Positions 2,373 to 61,215 of a DNA stretch of 64,000 bases are shown here, piece after piece. The translations under genes were made by a program, and so were the position numbers. Below the pieces are notes generated by a model. The model worked only from the letters and a program-made list of their open reading frames with translations, was not told the origin of the DNA and made no database searches. The stretch comes from Bordetella parapertussis (GTDB taxonomy: Bacteria > Pseudomonadota > Gammaproteobacteria > Burkholderiales > SG8-39): the NCBI GenBank assembly GCA_945861875.1, contig CAMAWC010000007.1, forward strand, positions 7,540 to 71,539, written 5' to 3'. Each line of letters opens with the position of its first letter. Position 1 is the stretch's first letter.

Positions 2373-2972
2373 TCAGTCTTGTGCCGCAGACACCCCTAGC
2401 AGCGCAATACGAAAGCGGTTCTTTAAATATGTACCTTCGCGCGGCGGCAGCACCAGCGGCAGTTTTTCTGCCACCACCCTGACCTGGGCAAACAACGGCC
2501 CCGCCGCCTTGCCCTTGGCATAAATACGGCGACGCAGCTGTTCCACGCCGGGTTTTCCGGTCACCCTGAGCACCTGTGCGAAACCCGCCGCCTTCGCCAT
2601 GCCGGCAAGGTCGACGCCGTAGGCGGTGTGCGTGGCCTGCATGCCGGTCTCGCCGTAGCGCTGGTTATCGAGCACGACAATGGCCAGGTTACGCGGCCGC
2701 TGCGCGGCGATGGCGGCAAGCGATCCCAGGCCCATCAGCATCTCGCCGTCGCCGGTCACCACCAGCACGCGACGCCGCGGTTGTGCAAGGGCAAGGCCAA
2801 GACCGAGCATCGCCGCCCCGCCCATCGCCCCCCACAAGGGAAAGGACAGCGCTGAATCCCCTGCGGCGGTGATGTCCCAGGCGGCAGAGCCGAGCCCGGC
2901 CACGACCAGCAGGTCACCGCGGTCCTCGAGCAAGGCGTTCACCACCTCGCGCCGGTGCAGGACGGCCTTCAT
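2373..2972 (-). CDS. Thiamine-diphosphate enzyme, beta (PP-domain) subunit; sulfopyruvate/phosphonopyruvate decarboxylase-like
   Basis: 199 aa. ThDP motif GDGEMLMGLGSLAAIA...VVLDN (GDG-X-N). Overlaps the alpha subunit gene by 4 nt. Confidence 0.8.
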   Translation of the reverse strand: MKAVLHRREVVNALLEDRGDLLVVAGLGSAAWDITAAGDSALSFPLWGAMGGAAMLGLGLALAQPRRRVLVVTGDGEMLMGLGSLAAIAAQRPRNLAIVVLDNQRYGETGMQATHTAYGVDLAGMAKAAGFAQVLRVTGKPGVEQLRRRIYAKGKAAGPLFAQVRVVAEKLPLVLPPREGTYLKNRFRIALLGVSAAQD

Positions 2973-3541
2973 GCGGGCACCGAATTAGTGAGTTCACGAA
3001 AATCCTTGGCGCCAAGCAGCTTCTGCCCGATCAGCACGGCGACGGCACGCTGGCCGTTAAAGGCCAGGCCCAGCGCCCCTCGCACCGTTACCGCAACCTC
3101 GGCGGGCGTATCGGCGCGCATGACAATCACCCCCATTGCTTCGAGCACCTCCTGCGAAGCCTGGCCCATGGGAATCTGCCAGGGATTGAACTCTCCGTGA
3201 TCACCGCGCATGGTGACAAGCATGAGCAGGGGAAAGCTGCAGGAAGCGTTAAGCGACAGCATGTTGATGCAATTGCCGACGCCGCTGCTTTGCATCAGCA
3301 GTATGCCTTTTTCGCCGCCCAGCCAGGCACCGGCGAGCAGCGCGACGCCCTGCTCCTCGCTGGTCAGGCGCACCACACGCATCGCCGTATCGGCCTCGCA
3401 CAGGCGTATCAGTTGCGCATGGCCGGCGTCCGGGACAATCGCCACCTGGCGTATGGCATGCTCGCGCAACAGGCGATGCACCTCTTCGGGCCATCCGGCC
3501 GGCGCGTCCTTGACCGCCTTGTTCAATTTTGTCCCCTTCAT
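2969..3541 (-). CDS. Thiamine-diphosphate enzyme, alpha (PYR-domain) subunit; sulfopyruvate decarboxylase ComD-like
   Basis: The track ORF runs 2969..3631. I chose the internal start MKGTKLNK (3541) because it gives an ATGA overlap with the stop of the upstream cyclase gene (3538). The EEQGVALLAGAWLGG region is typical of PYR domains. Confidence 0.75.
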   Translation of the reverse strand: MKGTKLNKAVKDAPAGWPEEVHRLLREHAIRQVAIVPDAGHAQLIRLCEADTAMRVVRLTSEEQGVALLAGAWLGGEKGILLMQSSGVGNCINMLSLNASCSFPLLMLVTMRGDHGEFNPWQIPMGQASQEVLEAMGVIVMRADTPAEVAVTVRGALGLAFNGQRAVAVLIGQKLLGAKDFRELTNSVPA

Positions 3542-8939: not shown

Positions 8940-8950
8940 CCGCAAGACTG

Positions 8951-9092
8951 CTTAGGGAAGCTCTGATTAAGTCCGTCATTCCCGCGAAAGCGGGAATCCA
9001 CCTTGACCTAAAGCGTGGATTCATTGAGTCAAAATGGATTCCCGCTTTCGCGGGAATGACGATTTATGGACTTAATCAGAGCTTCCCTTAGC
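8951..9092. mobile_element. MITE-like element (repeat family A) with roughly 46-bp imperfect terminal inverted repeats
   Basis: The left end CTTAGGGAAGCTCTGATTAAGTCCGTCATTCCCGCGAAAGCGGGAATCCA is the reverse complement of the right end TGGATTCCCGCTTTCGCGGGAATGAC(GATTTAT)GGACTTAATCAGAGCTTCCCTTAG, apart from one 7-bp indel. Each arm contains the hairpin ATTCCCGC-GAAA-GCGGGAAT. Near-identical copies lie near 10831, 34928 and 61030. Confidence 0.75.
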
Positions 9093-9115
9093 TAAATCAT
9101 GGCCAACAGCCCGTA

Positions 9116-9483
9116 CCGTCATCCCCGCGAAAGCGGGGATCCATGGGCTTAGATTTACACCTGAGGAACCGCTGAACAAGTCCCTGTTGCGTGTTTCATT
9201 TTTCATGACAATCACCCCATCCGCATCCGTCGTCCCCGTGAAAACGGGGACCCAGTGACGTTCGTCGCAAGTCACTGGATTCCCGCTCTGGTCCCCGGAG
9301 TGGGATTCGCGGGAATGACGGACTTATTCAGAGCTTCCCTAAGCGACGAAACCCATGGTTTCCGGGTTCCGCTACGCGGCCCCGGAATGACAGCGGTTTG
9401 CTTGAGCGGTAAGGGTCTGTCCCGGATTAGCCCCCGAATTTAATGCAAAAGTCACTGGATTCCCGCTTGCGCGGGAATGACGG
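9116..9483. repeat. Patchwork of hairpin repeat modules filling the rest of the spacer between the monooxygenase gene and ispF
   Basis: CGTCATCCCCGCGAAAGCGGGGATCCATGGG (near 9116), CGTCGTCCCCGTGAAAACGGGGAC..GTCACTGGATTCCCGC..GCGGGAATGACGGACTTATTCAGAGCTTCCCTAAG (near 9228-9345), CCCATGGTTTCCGGGTTCCGCTACGCGGCCCCGGAATGAC (near 9352-9392), and GTCACTGGATTCCCGCTTGCGCGGGAATGAC (near 9449-9482). Confidence 0.8.
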
Positions 9484-15676: not shown

Positions 15677-16874
<1,198 letters not shown>

Positions 16875-16912
16875 AAGCACGAATTTGTTCGGTGTTTTCT
16901 TAGTGGCAATCG

Positions 16913-22265: not shown

Positions 22266-22338
22266 GTCACTGGATTCCCGCTTGGCCGTTCCTCGAAACT
22301 TCGCCTCGCTTTGCGAGTCTCGTTTTCGCGGGAATGAC
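22266..22338. repeat. Family A right-arm hairpin with expanded loop
   Basis: GTCACTGGATTCCCGC-TTGGCCGTTCCTCGAAACTTCGCCTCGCTTTGCGAGTCTCGTTT-TCGCGGGAATGAC. The same loop insert is seen near 61120-61170. Confidence 0.8.
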
Positions 22339-34892: not shown

Positions 34893-35152
34893 CTAAGGAA
34901 CGCTTCATCGCCACGCCCGCCGACCTTGTCATTCCCGAGCAAGCGGGAATCCACCTTGACCTAAAGCGTGGATTCATTGAGTCAAAATGGATTCCCGCTT
35001 GCGCGGGAATGACGATTTATGGACTTAATCAGAGCTTCCCTAAAGAACGCTTCATCGCGACGCCCGCCGACCTTGTCATTCCGAACGCAGTGAGGAATCT
35101 GCTTTTGATACAAACCAGCAGCAGATTCCTCGGCCTGCGGCCTCGGAATGAC
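34893..35152. repeat. Nested repeats: a family A MITE bracketed by a 42-43-bp direct repeat, followed by a family B hairpin
   Basis: CTAAGGAACGCTTCATCGCCACGCCCGCCGACCTTGTCATTCC (about 34893) and CTAAAGAACGCTTCATCGCGACGCCCGCCGACCTTGTCATTCC (about 35040) flank the family A element. The second copy leads into GTCATTCCGAACGCAGTGAGGAATCTGC...GCAGATTCCTCGGCCTGCGGCCTCGGAATGAC. Confidence 0.8.
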
Positions 35153-42500: not shown

Positions 42501-42763
42501 CCGGTGCGGCACGGCTCTACGGCTGGAGCGAAGCCGAGGCGCTGGGAATGAACGTGCGCGAGCGCATCCCCGAGCCGCTGCAGACGGCGGCGCTGGCCAG
42601 GCTCGAACGCCTGGGCCGCGCCGAAGTCATCGAGAGCTATAGTACCCAGCGCCTGGATAAAAGCGGCGCGCTGCTGGAGGTCTCGATCACCGCCACCGCG
42701 CTGTTGGATGACCGGGGGCAGCTCTATGCGATCGCCACCACCGAACGGGCAAAAAAGCCATGA
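39561..42763 (+). pseudogene. CheB-CheR fusion protein with PAS domains and a coiled coil (K13924-like, lacking the kinase part), interrupted by a frame change near 41570
   Basis: Track ORFs 39561..41813 and 41549..42763 are consecutive parts of one protein. The parts are a Lys/Ala-rich tail, the CheB methylesterase core (IVGIGASAGGLEAF, LVQHLAPDH), CheR SAM-MTase (VWVPGCSTGEEAYSLAML), PAS, ...GLRVKT | NGHHTLVNLAVRPV..., the acidic coiled coil ELESSNEELKSSNEEMQSVNEEMQSTNEELETSKEELQSVNEEL, and two more PAS-like domains. One missing base in AAGAC-AACGG would rejoin the frames. Confidence 0.75.
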
Positions 42764-44124
42764 CTTCGCGCGACACACCTGCAAACCCGACGGGGGGCGC
42801 GCCACAAAACAAAGCGGCATCCGCCGCCGATGATTTGCGCACGCGCGGTGAAGCGGCAATGCGGAAAAAAAGCGGCGGCGTGCCGCCAGAGCTTGCCACG
42901 CTCACGCCCGAGGCCGCCGGCGCCCTGCTGCACGATCTGCAGGTGCACCAGATCGAGCTGGAGTTGCAAAACGACGAGTTGCGCAATGCGCAGTTGCAGA
43001 TCGAGGCGGCCCGGGAGCGCTATGCCGATTTGTATGAGTTCGCCCCGGTGGGCTATTGCACGCTCAGTGAAGAGGGCAGGATTCTCGATTCCAACCTGTG
43101 CGCCGCGGGCATGTTGGGCCTGCCGCGCGCCCAGTTGCTGGGCAAACCGTTCAGTCGTTTCGTCCTTCCCGACGACGCGGCAACCTTCCAGCTGGCGCGT
43201 AAAACAATGCAGCAGGAAGGCAAGCATCCACCGACCGAGTTGCGCATGCAAAATGCTGCCGGCGAGTGGTTCTGGGTGCTGTTGGCGGCCTCGGCCGCGC
43301 CGGCGACCAATGGACACGACACACCGGTGACGCGCCTGACCATCAGCGATATCAGCGCGCAAAAGAACGCCGCGGCGCAACTGCTCAAGACGCAAAGGGG
43401 GCAGATCATCGGCAGCCTCGCCGCCGGGTTTATGCACAATTTCAACAATATTCTGGCCACCATTCTGGGCAACACCCACCTCGCCATCGAGGATTCGCAG
43501 TCCAACCAGAACGCGCTGATAAGCCTGCATGAGATTGAAAAGTCGGCGACGCGCGCGCGCACCCTGGTGGAGGCGATCGGGTGGTTCGCCCACCAGCAGC
43601 CGGAGCGCAAACAACGCCTCGCCATCGGGCCGCTGGTCGAACGCGCGCTGCAGGTGATGCGCGCCACCCTGCCTGCGCGCGTTGTCCTCCTGGCGCACCC
43701 GGCCGCGGTGCTGCCCGAGGTACTGGCTGACCCGCTGCAAATCCAGCAGGCGATCATCAATGTCGTCACCAACGCCATGCAGGCGGCGCGTGGCGGGACG
43801 GTGCGCATTGAACTTCGCCAGGATACGGTGATGCTCGATGAAGCCCTTGGCGCGACCGACCCGCAGCTTGCCGCGATGTACCGGAGGCATCCGGGGATGA
43901 GCGTGCGCATCAGCATTGTCGATGACGGGCCGGGCATGGATATGGCCACGCTCTCGCGCGTGTTCGAGCCGTTCTTTACCACCAGGCCGCCGAGCCAGGG
44001 CGCCGGCCTGGGCCTGCCGGTGGCGCAAGGCATCATGGAAACGCACGAGGGTGCGATCACGGTCCAGAGCAAGCCTGGCCGCGGCACGACCGTCACGCTC
44101 TACCTGCCACCGGCTGCGGCCTAA
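42760..44124 (+). CDS. PAS-domain sensor histidine kinase
   Basis: 454 aa. ATGA overlap with the CheB-CheR gene. The coiled coil LQVHQIELELQNDELRNAQLQIE is followed by PAS, an H-box (FMHNFNNILATILG), and HATPase_c (DDGPGMD, GAGLGL). Confidence 0.88.
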   Translation: MTSRDTPANPTGGAPQNKAASAADDLRTRGEAAMRKKSGGVPPELATLTPEAAGALLHDLQVHQIELELQNDELRNAQLQIEAARERYADLYEFAPVGYCTLSEEGRILDSNLCAAGMLGLPRAQLLGKPFSRFVLPDDAATFQLARKTMQQEGKHPPTELRMQNAAGEWFWVLLAASAAPATNGHDTPVTRLTISDISAQKNAAAQLLKTQRGQIIGSLAAGFMHNFNNILATILGNTHLAIEDSQSNQNALISLHEIEKSATRARTLVEAIGWFAHQQPERKQRLAIGPLVERALQVMRATLPARVVLLAHPAAVLPEVLADPLQIQQAIINVVTNAMQAARGGTVRIELRQDTVMLDEALGATDPQLAAMYRRHPGMSVRISIVDDGPGMDMATLSRVFEPFFTTRPPSQGAGLGLPVAQGIMETHEGAITVQSKPGRGTTVTLYLPPAAA

Positions 44125-44130
44125 CCGACC

Positions 44131-44478
44131 CCGGAACCCATGGGGTTTGTCGTGCGGCTGGGAAAACCCAAGCCCATGGATTCCCGCTTACGCGGGAATG
44201 ACGGCGTTTTCAGTCCGGAATCGAGATGTATCCACCGTACCCGTCATTCCGGGGCGGCGTAGCCGAACCCGGAATCCATGGGGTTCGTCGATCGGCTGGG
44301 AAACCCAACCCCATGGATTCCTGCTTACGCGGGAATGACGGCGTTTTCATTCCGGAATCGAGATGTATCCACCGTACCCGTCATTCCGGCGCCGGCAAGA
44401 TATTCGTCATTCCGGGGCGGGCAATTTATCCGTCATTCCGGGGCGGCGCAGCCGAACCCGGAATCCATGGGGTTCGTC
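44131..44478. repeat. Tandem composite palindromic repeats (units 1-2 and the left half of unit 3)
   Basis: Units start near 44131, 44268 and 44458. Each unit is CCGGAAYCCATGGGGTT..AACCCCATGG, then GGATTCCYGCTTACGCGGGAATGAC, then GGCGTTTTCA.TCCGGAATCGAGATGTATCCACCGTACCCGTCATTCCGG... Confidence 0.85.
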
Positions 44479-44497
44479 GTGCAACGACACGTGTCGC

Positions 44498-44785
44498 CTA
44501 CATTTCGGATGACAGATCCCGCCATTCCGGATTGCATCGGCCGATCAGCGCGAGCTTCCACGCCCGCCGCCATTTCTTAAGTGTCTTTTCCCGGGCAATG
44601 GCGTCGTACATCGTTTCATGCGATTCGACGTGGACGAGTATTTTCACGCCGTGCTGCCTGGTGAAACCTGCTTCAAGGCTGTGCTTGTGCGCCCAAACGC
44701 GATTGGCCAGGTTCGACGTCACCCCAATGTACAAGGTGCCGTTGCGCTTGCTGGCAAGAATGTAGACACAGGGTTGCTTTGGCAT
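44498..44785 (-). CDS. GIY-YIG nuclease family protein (small stand-alone, COG2827/YhbQ-like)
   Basis: In track ORF 44498..44806, the first 7 codons (MGFVNRL) are repeat sequence. The ATG at 44785 gives MPKQPCVYILASKRNGTLYIGVTSNLANRVWAHK...AREKTLKKW, which contains the GIY, YIG, Arg and Glu motifs. Confidence 0.85.
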   Translation of the reverse strand: MPKQPCVYILASKRNGTLYIGVTSNLANRVWAHKHSLEAGFTRQHGVKILVHVESHETMYDAIAREKTLKKWRRAWKLALIGRCNPEWRDLSSEM

Positions 44786-44800
44786 AAGCCTGTTAACGAA

Positions 44801-44960
44801 CCCCATGGATTCCCGCTTACGCGGGAATGACGGCGTTTTCTTCCGGTATCGGTAAATAATTCATCATTCCGGGGCGCCGCAGGCGAACCCGGAATCCATG
44901 GGGTTCGTCGTGCAGCTGGGAAACCCAACCCCAGGGATTCCCGCTTACGCGGGAATTCGA
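44801..44960. repeat. Tandem composite palindromic repeats (right half of unit 3 and unit 4)
   Basis: ACCCCATGGATTCCCGCTTACGCGGGAATGACGGCGTTTTC..., then unit 4 from about 44888: CCGGAATCCATGGGGTTCGTCGTGCAGCTGGGAAACCCAACCCCAGGGATTCCCGCTTACGCGGGAAT. Confidence 0.85.
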
Positions 44961-44973
44961 GCCAGCGCCCGTT

Positions 44974-46464
44974 TCAGCACACGTCGGCCAGCGGGCCGGG
45001 TTTGCCGATGCCAAAGCCCTGCACGTAATCGACGCCCAGTTCCCCGAGTGCGCTCAGCGTGGCGTCGCTCTCGACCGACTCGGCGATGGTCAGCACGCCC
45101 ATCTTGCGCGCCGTCAGCGTAATGGCGCGTACCCGCGCGACGTCGGCGCGGTTGCCGGGCAGCCCCTGGATGATACTGCCGTCGATCTTGATGAAGTCAA
45201 ACTGCATGCCCTGCAAGGGCGCGAACGACACCCTGGTGCTGCCAAAGGCATCCAGCGTGAAGCGGCAGCCCAGCGGGCGCAGCGTGCCGATGAAGGCCTG
45301 CACCGCCGCGCGCTGCCCGATCAAATCCGGCTCGGTGATTTCAAAATTGATATTCCCGCCCGGAAATTTCTGCCGCAGCAGCTCGGCCTTGACGTACAGC
45401 GAGAAATTCGGGTCGGCCAGCGTCGCCGAGGACATGTTCACGCAAAACAACGGCAGCGGCCAGTCCGCAGCAATGCGCCGCCGTGCCAGCGCCCAGGTCA
45501 TGACGTTGCGCACCACCCAGCGGTCGATCTCGCCCATCATGCCGTAATGCTCGGCCACCGGAATAAAACCGCCCGGCGGCACCATGTTGTCCTCTTCCTG
45601 CTGCAGGCGCAGCAGGATTTCAAAGCAGCGCGGGTATGGCGCCGCAGCGCCCAGCGCGCGGATGGTCTGGCCGAACAGCACGAAATGATCCTCGCGCAGG
45701 GCCGTGACCAGCTGCTCGCGCGGGTCGGCCGAACCGAGCATCTGCCCGGTCAGCGACTCAAGGTACAGCAGTTCGTCGCCCCGGCCCGACCTTAGCACCT
45801 GGTCGCCGATGTGCGCCGGGGCCGCGGTCGCGGCCACCTCGATCGGCGCCGCGGTATTTTGTGCGATCAGCAGGTAAAACCCGGACGGGTGTTCGGTCGC
45901 GCCCGGAAACGGCAGCATGGCCACACTCAGCGGCATTTCCACGCCCTGTGCATTTCGCCAGGCCGCGTCAAAGCGCGCCTCCATGCCGCCCAGCACCGCG
46001 TCGCTGCGCGACTTCACATCCTCGTAGGCCGATGGTGCCAGCACGTCGTGCAGCAGCAGGTTATGGATCTTGCTCTTGTCACGCCCGATCCAGCCGGCAA
46101 AGGCGCGGTTGTGATAGCGGCAGTACTCGATCCGGTCGACAAACAGCAGCATCACCGGCAGCGCGTCGTGGATGAAATCGGCGCGTGCCTCGGTCATCTT
46201 GAGCGTTTCGGCCAGACGCTGGCGCCGCGTCACCTCCTCGGACAGCGCCTCCTTGGTGCGCAACCATTGTTTGGTGCGCCGCGCGATCAGCCACTGCGCG
46301 CGCGACGCCTGGCTGGCCACCGCCAGCACCGCGGCAAACAGCACGCCGCACAGGAACGCGATCCACTGCAAATCGAACAGCGTGAAATAAATCGTGGCGA
46401 GCAGCATCGCGCCAAGAATGACGGTCAGGCCGGCGGCCAGCACGTTGCGCAGTTTATTGGTCAT
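44974..46464 (-). CDS. Membrane-anchored PAS/EAL-domain protein (putative c-di-GMP phosphodiesterase)
   Basis: Track ORF 44974..46476 has a GTG start. The ATG at 46464 (MTNKLRN) is the likely start. Two TM helices, a coiled coil, a PAS-like region, then EAL (FEILLRL, NMSSATL, EITE, DAFGS, IKIDGS). Confidence 0.85.
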   Translation of the reverse strand: MTNKLRNVLAAGLTVILGAMLLATIYFTLFDLQWIAFLCGVLFAAVLAVASQASRAQWLIARRTKQWLRTKEALSEEVTRRQRLAETLKMTEARADFIHDALPVMLLFVDRIEYCRYHNRAFAGWIGRDKSKIHNLLLHDVLAPSAYEDVKSRSDAVLGGMEARFDAAWRNAQGVEMPLSVAMLPFPGATEHPSGFYLLIAQNTAAPIEVAATAAPAHIGDQVLRSGRGDELLYLESLTGQMLGSADPREQLVTALREDHFVLFGQTIRALGAAAPYPRCFEILLRLQQEEDNMVPPGGFIPVAEHYGMMGEIDRWVVRNVMTWALARRRIAADWPLPLFCVNMSSATLADPNFSLYVKAELLRQKFPGGNINFEITEPDLIGQRAAVQAFIGTLRPLGCRFTLDAFGSTRVSFAPLQGMQFDFIKIDGSIIQGLPGNRADVARVRAITLTARKMGVLTIAESVESDATLSALGELGVDYVQGFGIGKPGPLADVC

Positions 46465-46679
46465 TTTTGCCCGCACACCGACCCGCGCCGCACCAGCGGC
46501 AGGCCGGGCTCATCGAAAGACCGGGTGCCCGGCTTGATGTAGCCCACCAACTGCAATATTTCCATCGCAAATCCCCGTTTTAGATCGAGACACCGGCTGC
46601 GAAGCGCACCTGCGCGGCAAGCCTGCGCCGCCAATGCGGGCCGACGCGGGCGAAGATTAACCCGCTTCGCCCGATCCCC

Positions 46680-60889: not shown

Positions 60890-61215
60890 CTGATCAAGTC
60901 CGTCATTCCCGCGAAGCTTGTCCTCGAATGCCTTAATCGGGGAGCGGGAATCCACCTTGGGAAGCTCTGATTAAGTCCGTCATTCCCGCGAAAGCGGGAA
61001 TCCACCTTGGGAAACTCTGATTAAGTCCGTCATTCCCGCGAAGCTTGTCCTCGAATGCCTTAATCGGGGAGCGGGAATCCACCTTGACCTAAAGCGTGTA
61101 TTCATTGAGTCAAAATGGATTCCCGCTTGGCCGTTCCTCGAAACTTCGTCTCGCTGCGCGAGACTCGCTTTCGCGGGAATGACGATTTATGGACTTAATC
61201 AGAGCTTCCCTAAGC
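60890..61215. repeat. Family A repeat array: three tandem left arms (two with expanded loops) plus one right arm with an expanded loop
   Basis: (C)TGAT(C/T)AAGTCCGTCATTCCCGCG... occurs three times, starting near 60890, 60966 and 61017. It is closed by TGGATTCCCGC-TTGGCCGTTCCTCGAAACTTCGTCTCGCTGCGCGAGACTCGCTT-TCGCGGGAATGACGATTTATGGACTTAATCAGAGCTTCCCTAAG. Confidence 0.85.

Follow-up and report, generated by a model that had tools for sequence, protein, structure and literature searches.

The window analysed here, a 64,000-nt stretch of contig CAMAWC010000007.1, comes from an uncultured, probably Burkholderiales-like betaproteobacterium. A spacer of ~850 bp in it (44,125-44,973) lies between the convergent genes for a PAS histidine kinase (42760-44124, +) and an EAL protein (44974-46476, -) and holds four tandem copies of a repeat unit, one of which contains a gene for a small GIY-YIG nuclease. 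This cassette is very probably an ssn gene (SsnA family) flanked on both sides by its cognate hairpin repeat, the Ssn-related motif (SRM, or NTS), in two copies that face inward, inside a mosaic array resembling the Neisseria intergenic mosaic elements (NIMEs). The evidence comes from the family membership and catalytic residues of the protein, the identity and enrichment of the repeat, the inward layout, the folding of the repeats as single-stranded DNA (ssDNA) and the pairing of gene and repeat across phyla. Moreover, the copy number of the array varies between strains around a near-invariant gene.

The family was named Ssn, and its repeat NTS/SRM, by Chenal et al. (2025, Nat Commun 16:2388; PMC11893778), the only paper found when the literature was searched on GIY-YIG with dRS3, SsnA and cd10448. 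A preliminary description of this DNA, made from the sequence, knew of no described repeat family mobilised by a small stand-alone GIY-YIG protein; however, the association of GIY-YIG protein and repeat, its biochemistry and the analogy with mobile elements are already in print. The window adds one more example, from an uncultured betaproteobacterium, to a system described in 2025, which is little alone. Its value lies in a clean natural layout, in which filled and gene-less SRM-pair slots stand side by side, the array varies around an invariant gene, and two types of SRM, with 6-nt and 16-nt loops, flank a single ssn gene.

The ssn gene and its flanking repeats

SsnA of N. meningitidis (NMB0047 / NMV_0044) is a 94-aa protein assigned to cd10448 GIY-YIG_unchar_3 (PMC11893778). 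The window protein has 95 aa and likewise consists of a single GIY-YIG domain, with the catalytic Tyr, Tyr and Glu spaced as in SsnA. It matches Pfam GIY-YIG (PF01541, E = 2.9e-16, residues 12-84 of a 102-aa form) and shares 60% identity over 88 residues (E = 5e-37) with the 94-aa SsnA orthologue of N. gonorrhoeae, which served for comparison in place of N. meningitidis SsnA; the published criterion for SsnA homology is E < 1e-10 (PMC11893778). The gonococcal open reading frame (ORF) was obtained from NZ_CP119140, along with the NTS copies that flank it, by a tblastn search of PLSDB. It starts MQPAVYILASQRNGTLYIGV and carries Tyr6, Tyr17 and Glu64, exactly the residues mutated in the SsnA study, where Y6A, Y17A and E64A each abolished cleavage (PMC11893778). 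Y8, Y19 and E66 of the window protein align with SsnA Y6, Y17 and E64 and, together with R29, H33 and N85, are invariant in alignments of 19 and 32 sequences. As a side observation, the gonococcal entry (NZ_CP119140.1) is a 2.17-Mb chromosome filed as a plasmid in PLSDB, and its ssnA locus is unannotated.

An AlphaFold2 model of the protein (pLDDT 88.8) shows one compact GIY-YIG domain and no extra domain, and its best structural matches in the PDB (UPF0213, the UvrC N-terminal domain and Slx1) are all GIY-YIG folds. No solved Ssn structure was found in the PDB by structure or sequence search, the latter giving only UPF0213 (E = 0.006). The family is very large, with 7,986 of the 8,000 scored candidates at E <= 1e-5, and its members are of ~95 aa. 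None of the NCBIfam matches of the protein, to models for UvrC, Cho and intron endonucleases, reached threshold; against TIGR01453, the model for group I intron endonucleases, it scored 17.7 bits, the cut-off being 56.05. An origin in a defence system or a phage found no support, PADLOC giving one weak match (E = 0.002) and PHROGs none.

The ssn gene ends with TAG (44498-44500), and its 95-aa form begins at the ATG of 44783-44785. Another ATG in the same frame (44804-44806, within CCATGG) yields the 102-aa product annotated in databases, and public gene calls in some strains give a 125-aa product that starts inside the repeat. Because members of the family begin MxxPCVYIL in alignments, the sequence favours the 95-aa start at 44785 over the 102-aa start. 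At the other end of the gene, several homologues have an annotated C-terminal read-through into the SRM, e.g. P0011, which ends ...GGFPLARE. The preliminary description gave the correct lengths for the sequence beyond the stop codon (18 nt, 44480-44497) and for that preceding the ATG (15 nt, 44786-44800).

The repeat is the NTS/dRS3 element of Neisseria, alias SRM (CGTCATTCCCGCGMAVGCGGGAATCYRG), and the NTS includes the 20-bp dRS3 repeat ATTCCC-N8-GGGAAT (PMC11893778). Its enrichment was measured over the whole 64-kb window. The published SRM pattern has 12 matches, whereas 30 first-order Markov simulations gave 0.47 on average. With up to 3 mismatches allowed, the NTS consensus has 16 matches against an expectation of 0; one of these is perfect and 15 are near-perfect. 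The dRS3 core, ATTCCY-N8-GGGAAT, occurs at 12 sites. As in Neisseria the repeats are confined to intergenic clusters, and a relaxed scan that allowed long loops recovered 30 hairpins with loops of 6, 16, 24, 33 and 48 nt in 9 intergenic spacers, not in at least 15 spacers as had been proposed. As ssDNA the hairpins fold better than shuffled sequence.

The features of the spacer are as follows.

44106-44143: left SRM half of unit 1, degenerate, overlapping the 3' end of the PAS kinase gene
44138-44203 (no strand): unit 1, gene-less; inner palindrome, 12-nt filler and an NTS at 44174-44203 (-)
44242-44340 (no strand): unit 2, gene-less; long-loop SRM at 44242-44281 (+), filler GCTGGGAAACCC at 44295-44306, NTS at 44311-44340 (-)
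44379-44430 (+): two tandem 26-nt repeats corresponding to the 5' half of the SRM (CGTCATTCCGGSGCSGGCAA...), repeat family D3
44431-44470 (+): SRM variant with a 16-nt loop, downstream of ssn and facing inward, CGTCATTCCGGGGCGGCGCAGCCGAACCCGGAATCCATGG
44465-44483 (+): left inner arm CCATGGGGTTCGTCGTGCA, common to the filled unit and the gene-less units
44485-44496 (no strand): palindrome CGACACGTGTCG, starting 1 nt after the stop codon
44498-44785 (-): ssn gene, 95-aa single-domain GIY-YIG nuclease of the SsnA family
44796-44808 (+): right inner arm ACGAACCCCATGG, a 13-nt inverted repeat with 44465-44477, including the upstream in-frame ATG
44803-44832 (-): NTS-type SRM directly upstream of ssn, CGTCATTCCCGCGTAAGCGGGAATCCATGG; fits the published SRM pattern, and the NTS at 2 mismatches
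44862-44960 (no strand): unit 4, gene-less; long-loop SRM at 44862-44901 (+), filler at 44915-44926, NTS at 44931-44960 (-)

The gene has inward-facing repeats on both sides, as in the published systems. Upstream, the 28-mer CGTCATTCCCGCGTAAGCGGGAATCCAT (44805-44832, -) lies on the strand of the gene, 19 nt before the ATG of the 95-aa form, and the upstream NTS (44803-44832) folds as ssDNA at -9.5 kcal/mol (z = -2.7). Downstream, a long-loop SRM at 44431-44468 (+) of the form CGTCATTCCGGG-[16-nt loop region]-CCCGGAATCCAT lies 29 nt past the stop on the opposite strand, and folds at -13 kcal/mol (z = -2.6). Although its loop is too long for the pattern in print, it keeps the stem, the CGTCAT of the 5' flank and, as 3' flank, the C that follows the palindrome. 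The preliminary description had placed the gene in the apical loop of one composite hairpin. However, a closer inspection resolved this "composite palindrome" into two distinct hairpin repeats facing inward, of which the CCATGGGGTT arms are the 3' continuations, and the gene sits between them in the standard layout of the family.

The four copies of the 93-nt unit (repeat family D1) are in register, starting at 44106, 44244, 44433 and 44864, and their inner palindrome arms CCATGGGGTT / AACCCCATGG stand at 44138/44170, 44276/44307, 44465/44799 and 44896/44927. Units 1, 2 and 4 hold a filler of 12 nt, GCTGGGAAA(A)CCC, the place of which is taken in unit 3 by the cassette (~44484-44798) with the ssn gene; this arrangement of four tandem units had been correctly described beforehand. 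The 10-mer CCATGGGGTT occurs 8 times in the 64-kb window (~0.1 expected) and ATTCCY-N8-GGGAAT at 12 sites, and the arrangement of units and palindromes is thus not a product of chance. Unit 3 contains an inverted repeat (I2) with 23-nt arms that are 91% complementary and 318 nt apart. Unit 2 as a whole folds as ssDNA at -34.6 kcal/mol (z = -5.6), and the NTS of unit 4 (44931-44960, -) has lost its CGTCAT end. The left half of unit 1 spans the last codons of the PAS kinase and its stop (LPPAAA-stop), so that the array adjoins and partly makes up the 3' end of that gene.

The gene-less units had been proposed to be non-autonomous derivatives of the filled one. They are not simple deletion derivatives of it: filled and gene-less units agree over no more than 19 nt at one flank and 10 nt at the other, the fillers are without convincing similarity to the ends of the cassette, and an unrelated ~655-nt element occupies the equivalent bracket at another locus (see below). 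More probably these units would be ordinary mosaic units whose slot between two SRMs carries a short filler. As to the palindrome after the stop codon, a perfect copy is indeed present in the window. However, an A/G change turns CGACACGTGTCG into the non-palindromic CGACGCGTGTCG in 8 of 19 strain contigs, and because this polymorphism destroys the palindrome it is probably not a conserved recognition site. A consensus scan of 44100-45000 found neither a sigma-70-like promoter nor an intrinsic terminator.

Several features set the window apart from Neisseria SsnA. The DNA belongs to an uncultured betaproteobacterium (63% G+C), the downstream repeat has a 16-nt loop and a GG/CC change in the stem (ATTCCGGG...CCCGGAAT), an extra palindrome of 10-13 nt (CCATGGGGTT(CGT)) is found just inside each SRM, and the gene is part of a tandem array beside gene-less units of the same design. 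The window also resembles the NIMEs, with short variable segments bracketed by inverted dRS3-type repeats in intergenic, strain-variable arrays. The core repeat is dRS3 itself (12 sites), with four bracketed units at 44125-44965 and additional arrays at 8974-9482 and 60902-61183. The inner segments of the window array are presumably not homologous to the RS elements of Neisseria. Unlike NIMEs, one of the slots carries a protein-coding gene, and no filamentous prophage or dRS3-targeting recombinase was seen beside the array, although the whole window was not searched for one.

Pairing of gene and repeat across bacteria and a likely mechanism

Eighty homologue loci (55-70% identity) were sampled from GTDB genomes, spanning Dehalococcoidia and other Chloroflexota, delta-, alpha-, beta- and gammaproteobacteria, Planctomycetota, Acidobacteriota, Binatia and others. 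When inverted repeats were sought without bias between the upstream and the downstream 120 nt of each gene, one hairpin came up repeatedly, CGTCATTCC(C/G)GCG-loop-CGC(G/C)GGAATCCAG, a few nt from the start and stop codons. An SRM fitting the published pattern lies within 150 nt at 51 of the 80 loci. At 42 it is upstream on the strand of the gene, 25 of these standing 4-19 nt from the first codon; at 24 there is one downstream on the opposite strand, and 18 loci have an inward-facing pair. By this survey the layout of the window, with its 19-nt upstream gap and inward-facing partners, is the norm of the family. The link between the small GIY-YIG protein and the hairpin is real and specific, and homologues of at least eight lineages carry this hairpin at their flanks. 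The earlier suggestion that a small stand-alone GIY-YIG protein belongs with this palindromic repeat was thus correct.

These frequencies may be set beside those in print, where an SRM is nearby in 71% of homologues and on both sides in 42% (PMC11893778). The preliminary description had asked whether repeat number correlates with presence of the gene and whether repeat oligonucleotides are cleaved, both of which have already been published: 81% of genomes with >200 SRMs encode Ssn, and hairpin-specific cleavage of ssDNA has been demonstrated for 4 Ssn homologues (PMC11893778). SsnA binds the NTS solely when it is single-stranded and in one orientation only, and cuts a few nt 5' of it, ~3 nt upstream judging from 37-nt and 28-nt substrates. 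It needs the stem and the flanking bases, whereas loop identity is irrelevant and extensions at the loop position are tolerated. Deletion of ssnA leads to a ~five-fold higher transformation with NTS-bearing DNA (PMC11893778).

The most likely mechanism in the window is the published one, orientation-specific cleavage of ssDNA beside folded hairpins. Judging from the four homologues studied, the window nuclease would bind the folded hairpin, as ssDNA only and in one orientation, and would hydrolyse the strand ~3 nt 5' of CGTCAT, with the loop dispensable but the stem and its flanking bases required. Its predicted cuts fall near 44427/44428 (+) and 44835/44836 (-), just outside the SRM-ssn-SRM unit. 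The targets would be SRM-bearing ssDNA, for example incoming transforming or conjugative DNA, or strands exposed at replication and recombination, and cutting them would modulate recombination around SRM arrays. Ssn enzymes are under development as single-strand-specific restriction tools, which makes a member paired with a long-loop SRM variant a candidate new specificity.

Strain variation and rival explanations

Nineteen contigs with ssn were compared, of which 11 keep the upstream flanking genes and 8 are shorter and consist of repeat-array sequence only. The EAL/PAS-kinase locus was confirmed in 10 of the 11. There are only three alleles of the ssn ORF, at most 2 nt from that of the window. 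However, strains differ in how many gene-less units and 26-nt half-SRM repeats (CGTCATTCCGGSGCSGGCAA...) their flanking arrays contain, the latter occurring in ~2 to 5 copies, on either side of ssn, across contigs L005-L019. Variable arrays around a gene with three alleles point to slippage or recombination inside the array around a stable gene. Neither the window nor any of 18 other loci showed a direct-repeat (target-site) duplication beside its SRM pair. An orthologous locus without ssn was not found, exact look-ups returning only contigs that carry ssn, and no homologue of the adjacent PAS kinase falls in the range between 99% and 49% identity. We infer that in the lineage of the window ssn is a resident of a fixed locus and not demonstrably a jumping element.

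One contig departs from this pattern. In L007 (also L103; ENA ERZ27280146, k141_1584839) an ssn allele identical to that of L006 and L008 follows a gene for a PACE efflux transporter rather than the EAL gene (L103:3947-4746). Its homology to nine other contigs of the PACE locus stops inside a shared 33-nt stretch of NTS and CCATGGGGTT. Among these ten contigs ssn is found only in L103, and the other nine carry a cargo of ~655 nt between the NTS pair. The shared 33 nt are far below the assembler k of 141, which makes a trivial assembly chimera unlikely. The contig ends in the array, so the far end is missing, and it represents either a repeat-mediated recombinant (a chromosomal rearrangement) or a cassette exchange. 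The cargo of the other nine contigs (L101:3976-4630, also L100, L102 and L104-L109) is a non-coding element with 117-nt inverted arms that are 88% complementary; its sole Rfam match is sub-threshold (anti-hemB, 25.6 bits against 49.5), and in L100 a gene for an IS481-type transposase follows it. The bracket at the PACE locus reads NTS-CCATGGGGTT ... AACCCCATGG-NTS, the same type of slot that houses ssn in the window. That it holds an unrelated element implies that the slot between two SRMs behaves as a mosaic slot, as in NIMEs.

Further unusual copies were observed. Contig L019 (ENA ERZ27300181, k141_1310463) has 676 nt with an exact terminal overlap of 141 nt, equal to the k of the assembler, and therefore closes to a 535-bp cycle containing an NTS, ssn, an SRM and four 26-nt half-SRM repeats. 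Such a cycle means either that the cassette is tandemly duplicated or that the molecule is circular. A Dehalococcoidia genome (L058) has two tandem ssn copies. The deltaproteobacterial metagenome-assembled genome (MAG) MFD01476.bin.2.94 (L074, L075, L078, L080 and L094, ~2900-3420) contains five near-identical SRM-ssn-SRM units of 461-515 bp, with sharp borders and terminal inverted repeats of 17-18 bp (CATAAGCGCTAACTTAA). At four of the five, differing G/C-rich direct repeats of 11-12 bp adjoin both ends, e.g. CCCCTCACCCC and GGGGGGAGGGG, and look like target-site duplications. A further difference among these copies is a hairpin insert of 27 nt, located in the loop of their upstream SRM.

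The possibility that SRM-ssn-SRM is an autonomous element akin to an insertion sequence, whose nuclease also mobilises gene-less SRM pairs as copies resembling miniature inverted-repeat transposable elements (MITEs), in the manner proposed for the RAYT transposases with their REP repeats and BIME mosaics, was considered in this light and appears unlikely. The parallel itself is a reasonable one: a small nuclease gene lies between inverted copies of a hairpin that is also scattered in intergenic mosaics, and the hairpin is recognised on ssDNA, for Ssn as published for its homologues. However, the enzyme is a hydrolytic GIY-YIG protein and not an HUH/Y1 protein with a covalent intermediate. We know of no strand-transfer or covalent-intermediate chemistry among GIY-YIG enzymes, which are hydrolytic nucleases. 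Moreover, both ends of IS200/IS605 elements are processed on the same strand, whereas Ssn cuts one hairpin orientation and inward-facing SRMs would direct the two predicted cuts to opposite strands. No IS200/IS605-type Y1 (HUH) transposase is present in the cassette, the sole protein of which is GIY-YIG, although RAYT genes were not looked for elsewhere in the window. The preliminary description had proposed mobilisation by the nuclease, which the data do not support: ssn keeps one syntenic locus in 10 of the 11 contigs with upstream flanking genes, the SRM pair lacks target-site duplications, and the gene-less units did not arise from the filled one by deletion. The likeness to an insertion sequence and the SRM-ssn-SRM layout were both reported in the family paper, with the REP/BIME-RAYT parallel that the preliminary description also drew, the likeness and the parallel as hypothesis (PMC11893778). 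The five bounded units of the MAG, four of them with apparent target-site duplications, speak for mobility, but their terminal repeats are not SRMs, and a transposase acting in trans may therefore carry ssn as cargo. Similarly, the L006/L008 allele of L007/L103 beside a different gene would fit an element that moves, but the joint falls inside 33 nt common to both loci, as homologous recombination between repeats predicts. The closed cycle of L019, the tandem copies of L058 and the 60-70% identity of homologues across phyla, which suggests horizontal spread, also count in its favour.

A homing-type selfish gene, in which Ssn would cut ssDNA at SRM pairs and recombinational repair would copy the ssn slot into gene-less pairs through gene conversion, with SRM and CCATGGGGTT as homology, is very unlikely. 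The flanks it calls for are there, as filled and gene-less units have SRM plus CCATGGGGTTCGTCGTGCA and AACCCCATGG plus NTS in common, but such homology arms are very short (~30-60 nt), and three gene-less slots only a few hundred bp away in the array stay unfilled in all strains. The L007/L103 joint lies exactly within NTS plus CCATGGGGTT, with ssn and the downstream array replacing the ~655-nt cargo of nine contigs, and tandem or cyclic copies exist; however, this is the single variant joint seen, and its far end is missing where the contig ends in the array. The catalytic core, and a position in repeated DNA like that of a selfish gene, recall the GIY-YIG homing endonucleases (I-TevI and the free-standing Seg enzymes). 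Unlike these, the window protein has no DNA-binding domain of the kind known from GIY-YIG homing enzymes (cf. TIGR01453, 17.7 against 56.05), lies neither in an intron nor in a phage, and belongs to a family whose substrate is ssDNA and not double-stranded DNA. That repeats merely piled up in a permissive spacer around an unrelated nuclease gene is scarcely credible. The spacer between convergent genes does tolerate large changes of copy number between strains, but in at least eight lineages homologues have this hairpin beside them, with distance and orientation conserved, and recognition of the repeat by the protein has been shown biochemically in four species (PMC11893778). This pairing across lineages, with the published biochemistry, has effectively already refuted a coincidence.

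The reading that we prefer, an ssn gene between its cognate repeats in a NIME-like array, has points weighing against it as well. Cleavage by the window protein and its use of the long-loop SRM variant are extrapolated from homologues. The role in transformation was shown for N. meningitidis only, and the authors call the role in other bacteria unknown (PMC11893778). The L007/L103 joint, the 535-bp cycle of L019 and the five bounded copies in the deltaproteobacterial MAG suggest that the unit is not always static. A doubtful but possible extension is that SRM-ssn-SRM is, or recently was, self-propagating, with cleavage by Ssn of hairpins folded on ssDNA starting movement of the cassette, or its gene conversion, into the slots that SRM pairs enclose, and spreading gene-less SRM pairs, as a GIY-YIG counterpart of RAYT and REP. 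The five-copy element of the MAG, the joint in NTS plus CCATGGGGTT and the 535-bp cycle make this idea directly testable. The dRS3/NTS-type repeats have been a puzzle of Neisseria genomics for more than 20 years. Mobility, if true, would explain their spread within and between phyla and would constitute a new route to repeat proliferation, based on a hydrolytic nuclease.

Other repeat clusters of the window

The remaining repeat features are listed below.

8974-9482 (no strand): largest other SRM cluster of the window, with the perfect match to the N. meningitidis NTS consensus at 9455-9482 (-)
60902-61183 (no strand): SRM cluster with loop-expanded copies; 33-nt loops at 60902 and 61029, 48-nt loop at 61119 (-)
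16761-16810, 60902-60951 and 61029-61078 (+): SRM hairpins with loop inserts
22274-22338, 61119-61183 and 9279-9319 (-): SRM hairpins with loop inserts
8950-9090, 34927-35045 and 60960-61215, also 16740-16880: sites of a second composite family

A search of the whole window against Rfam at gathering thresholds matched no known RNA family, and a tRNA-linked element was rejected as there are no tRNA genes in the window. The loop inserts are recurrent and of 33-nt, 48-nt and 24-nt types, and leave the stems CGTCATTCCCGCG / CGCGGGAATCC and the flanks unchanged. Such inserts had been noted before and are real at ~16761, 22274 and 60902-61183. However, they need not mean, as had been suggested, that loops are the point of insertion, and they agree with the published tolerance of SsnA for extensions at the loop position. 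In the second composite family, outer inverted repeats TAGGGAAGCTCTGATTAAGTC / GACTTAATCAGAGCTTCCCTA surround an NTS pair with an inner segment CCACCTTGACCTAAAGCGTGGATTCATTGAGTCAAAATGG. This family looks MITE-like and distinct from the CCATGGGGTT family.

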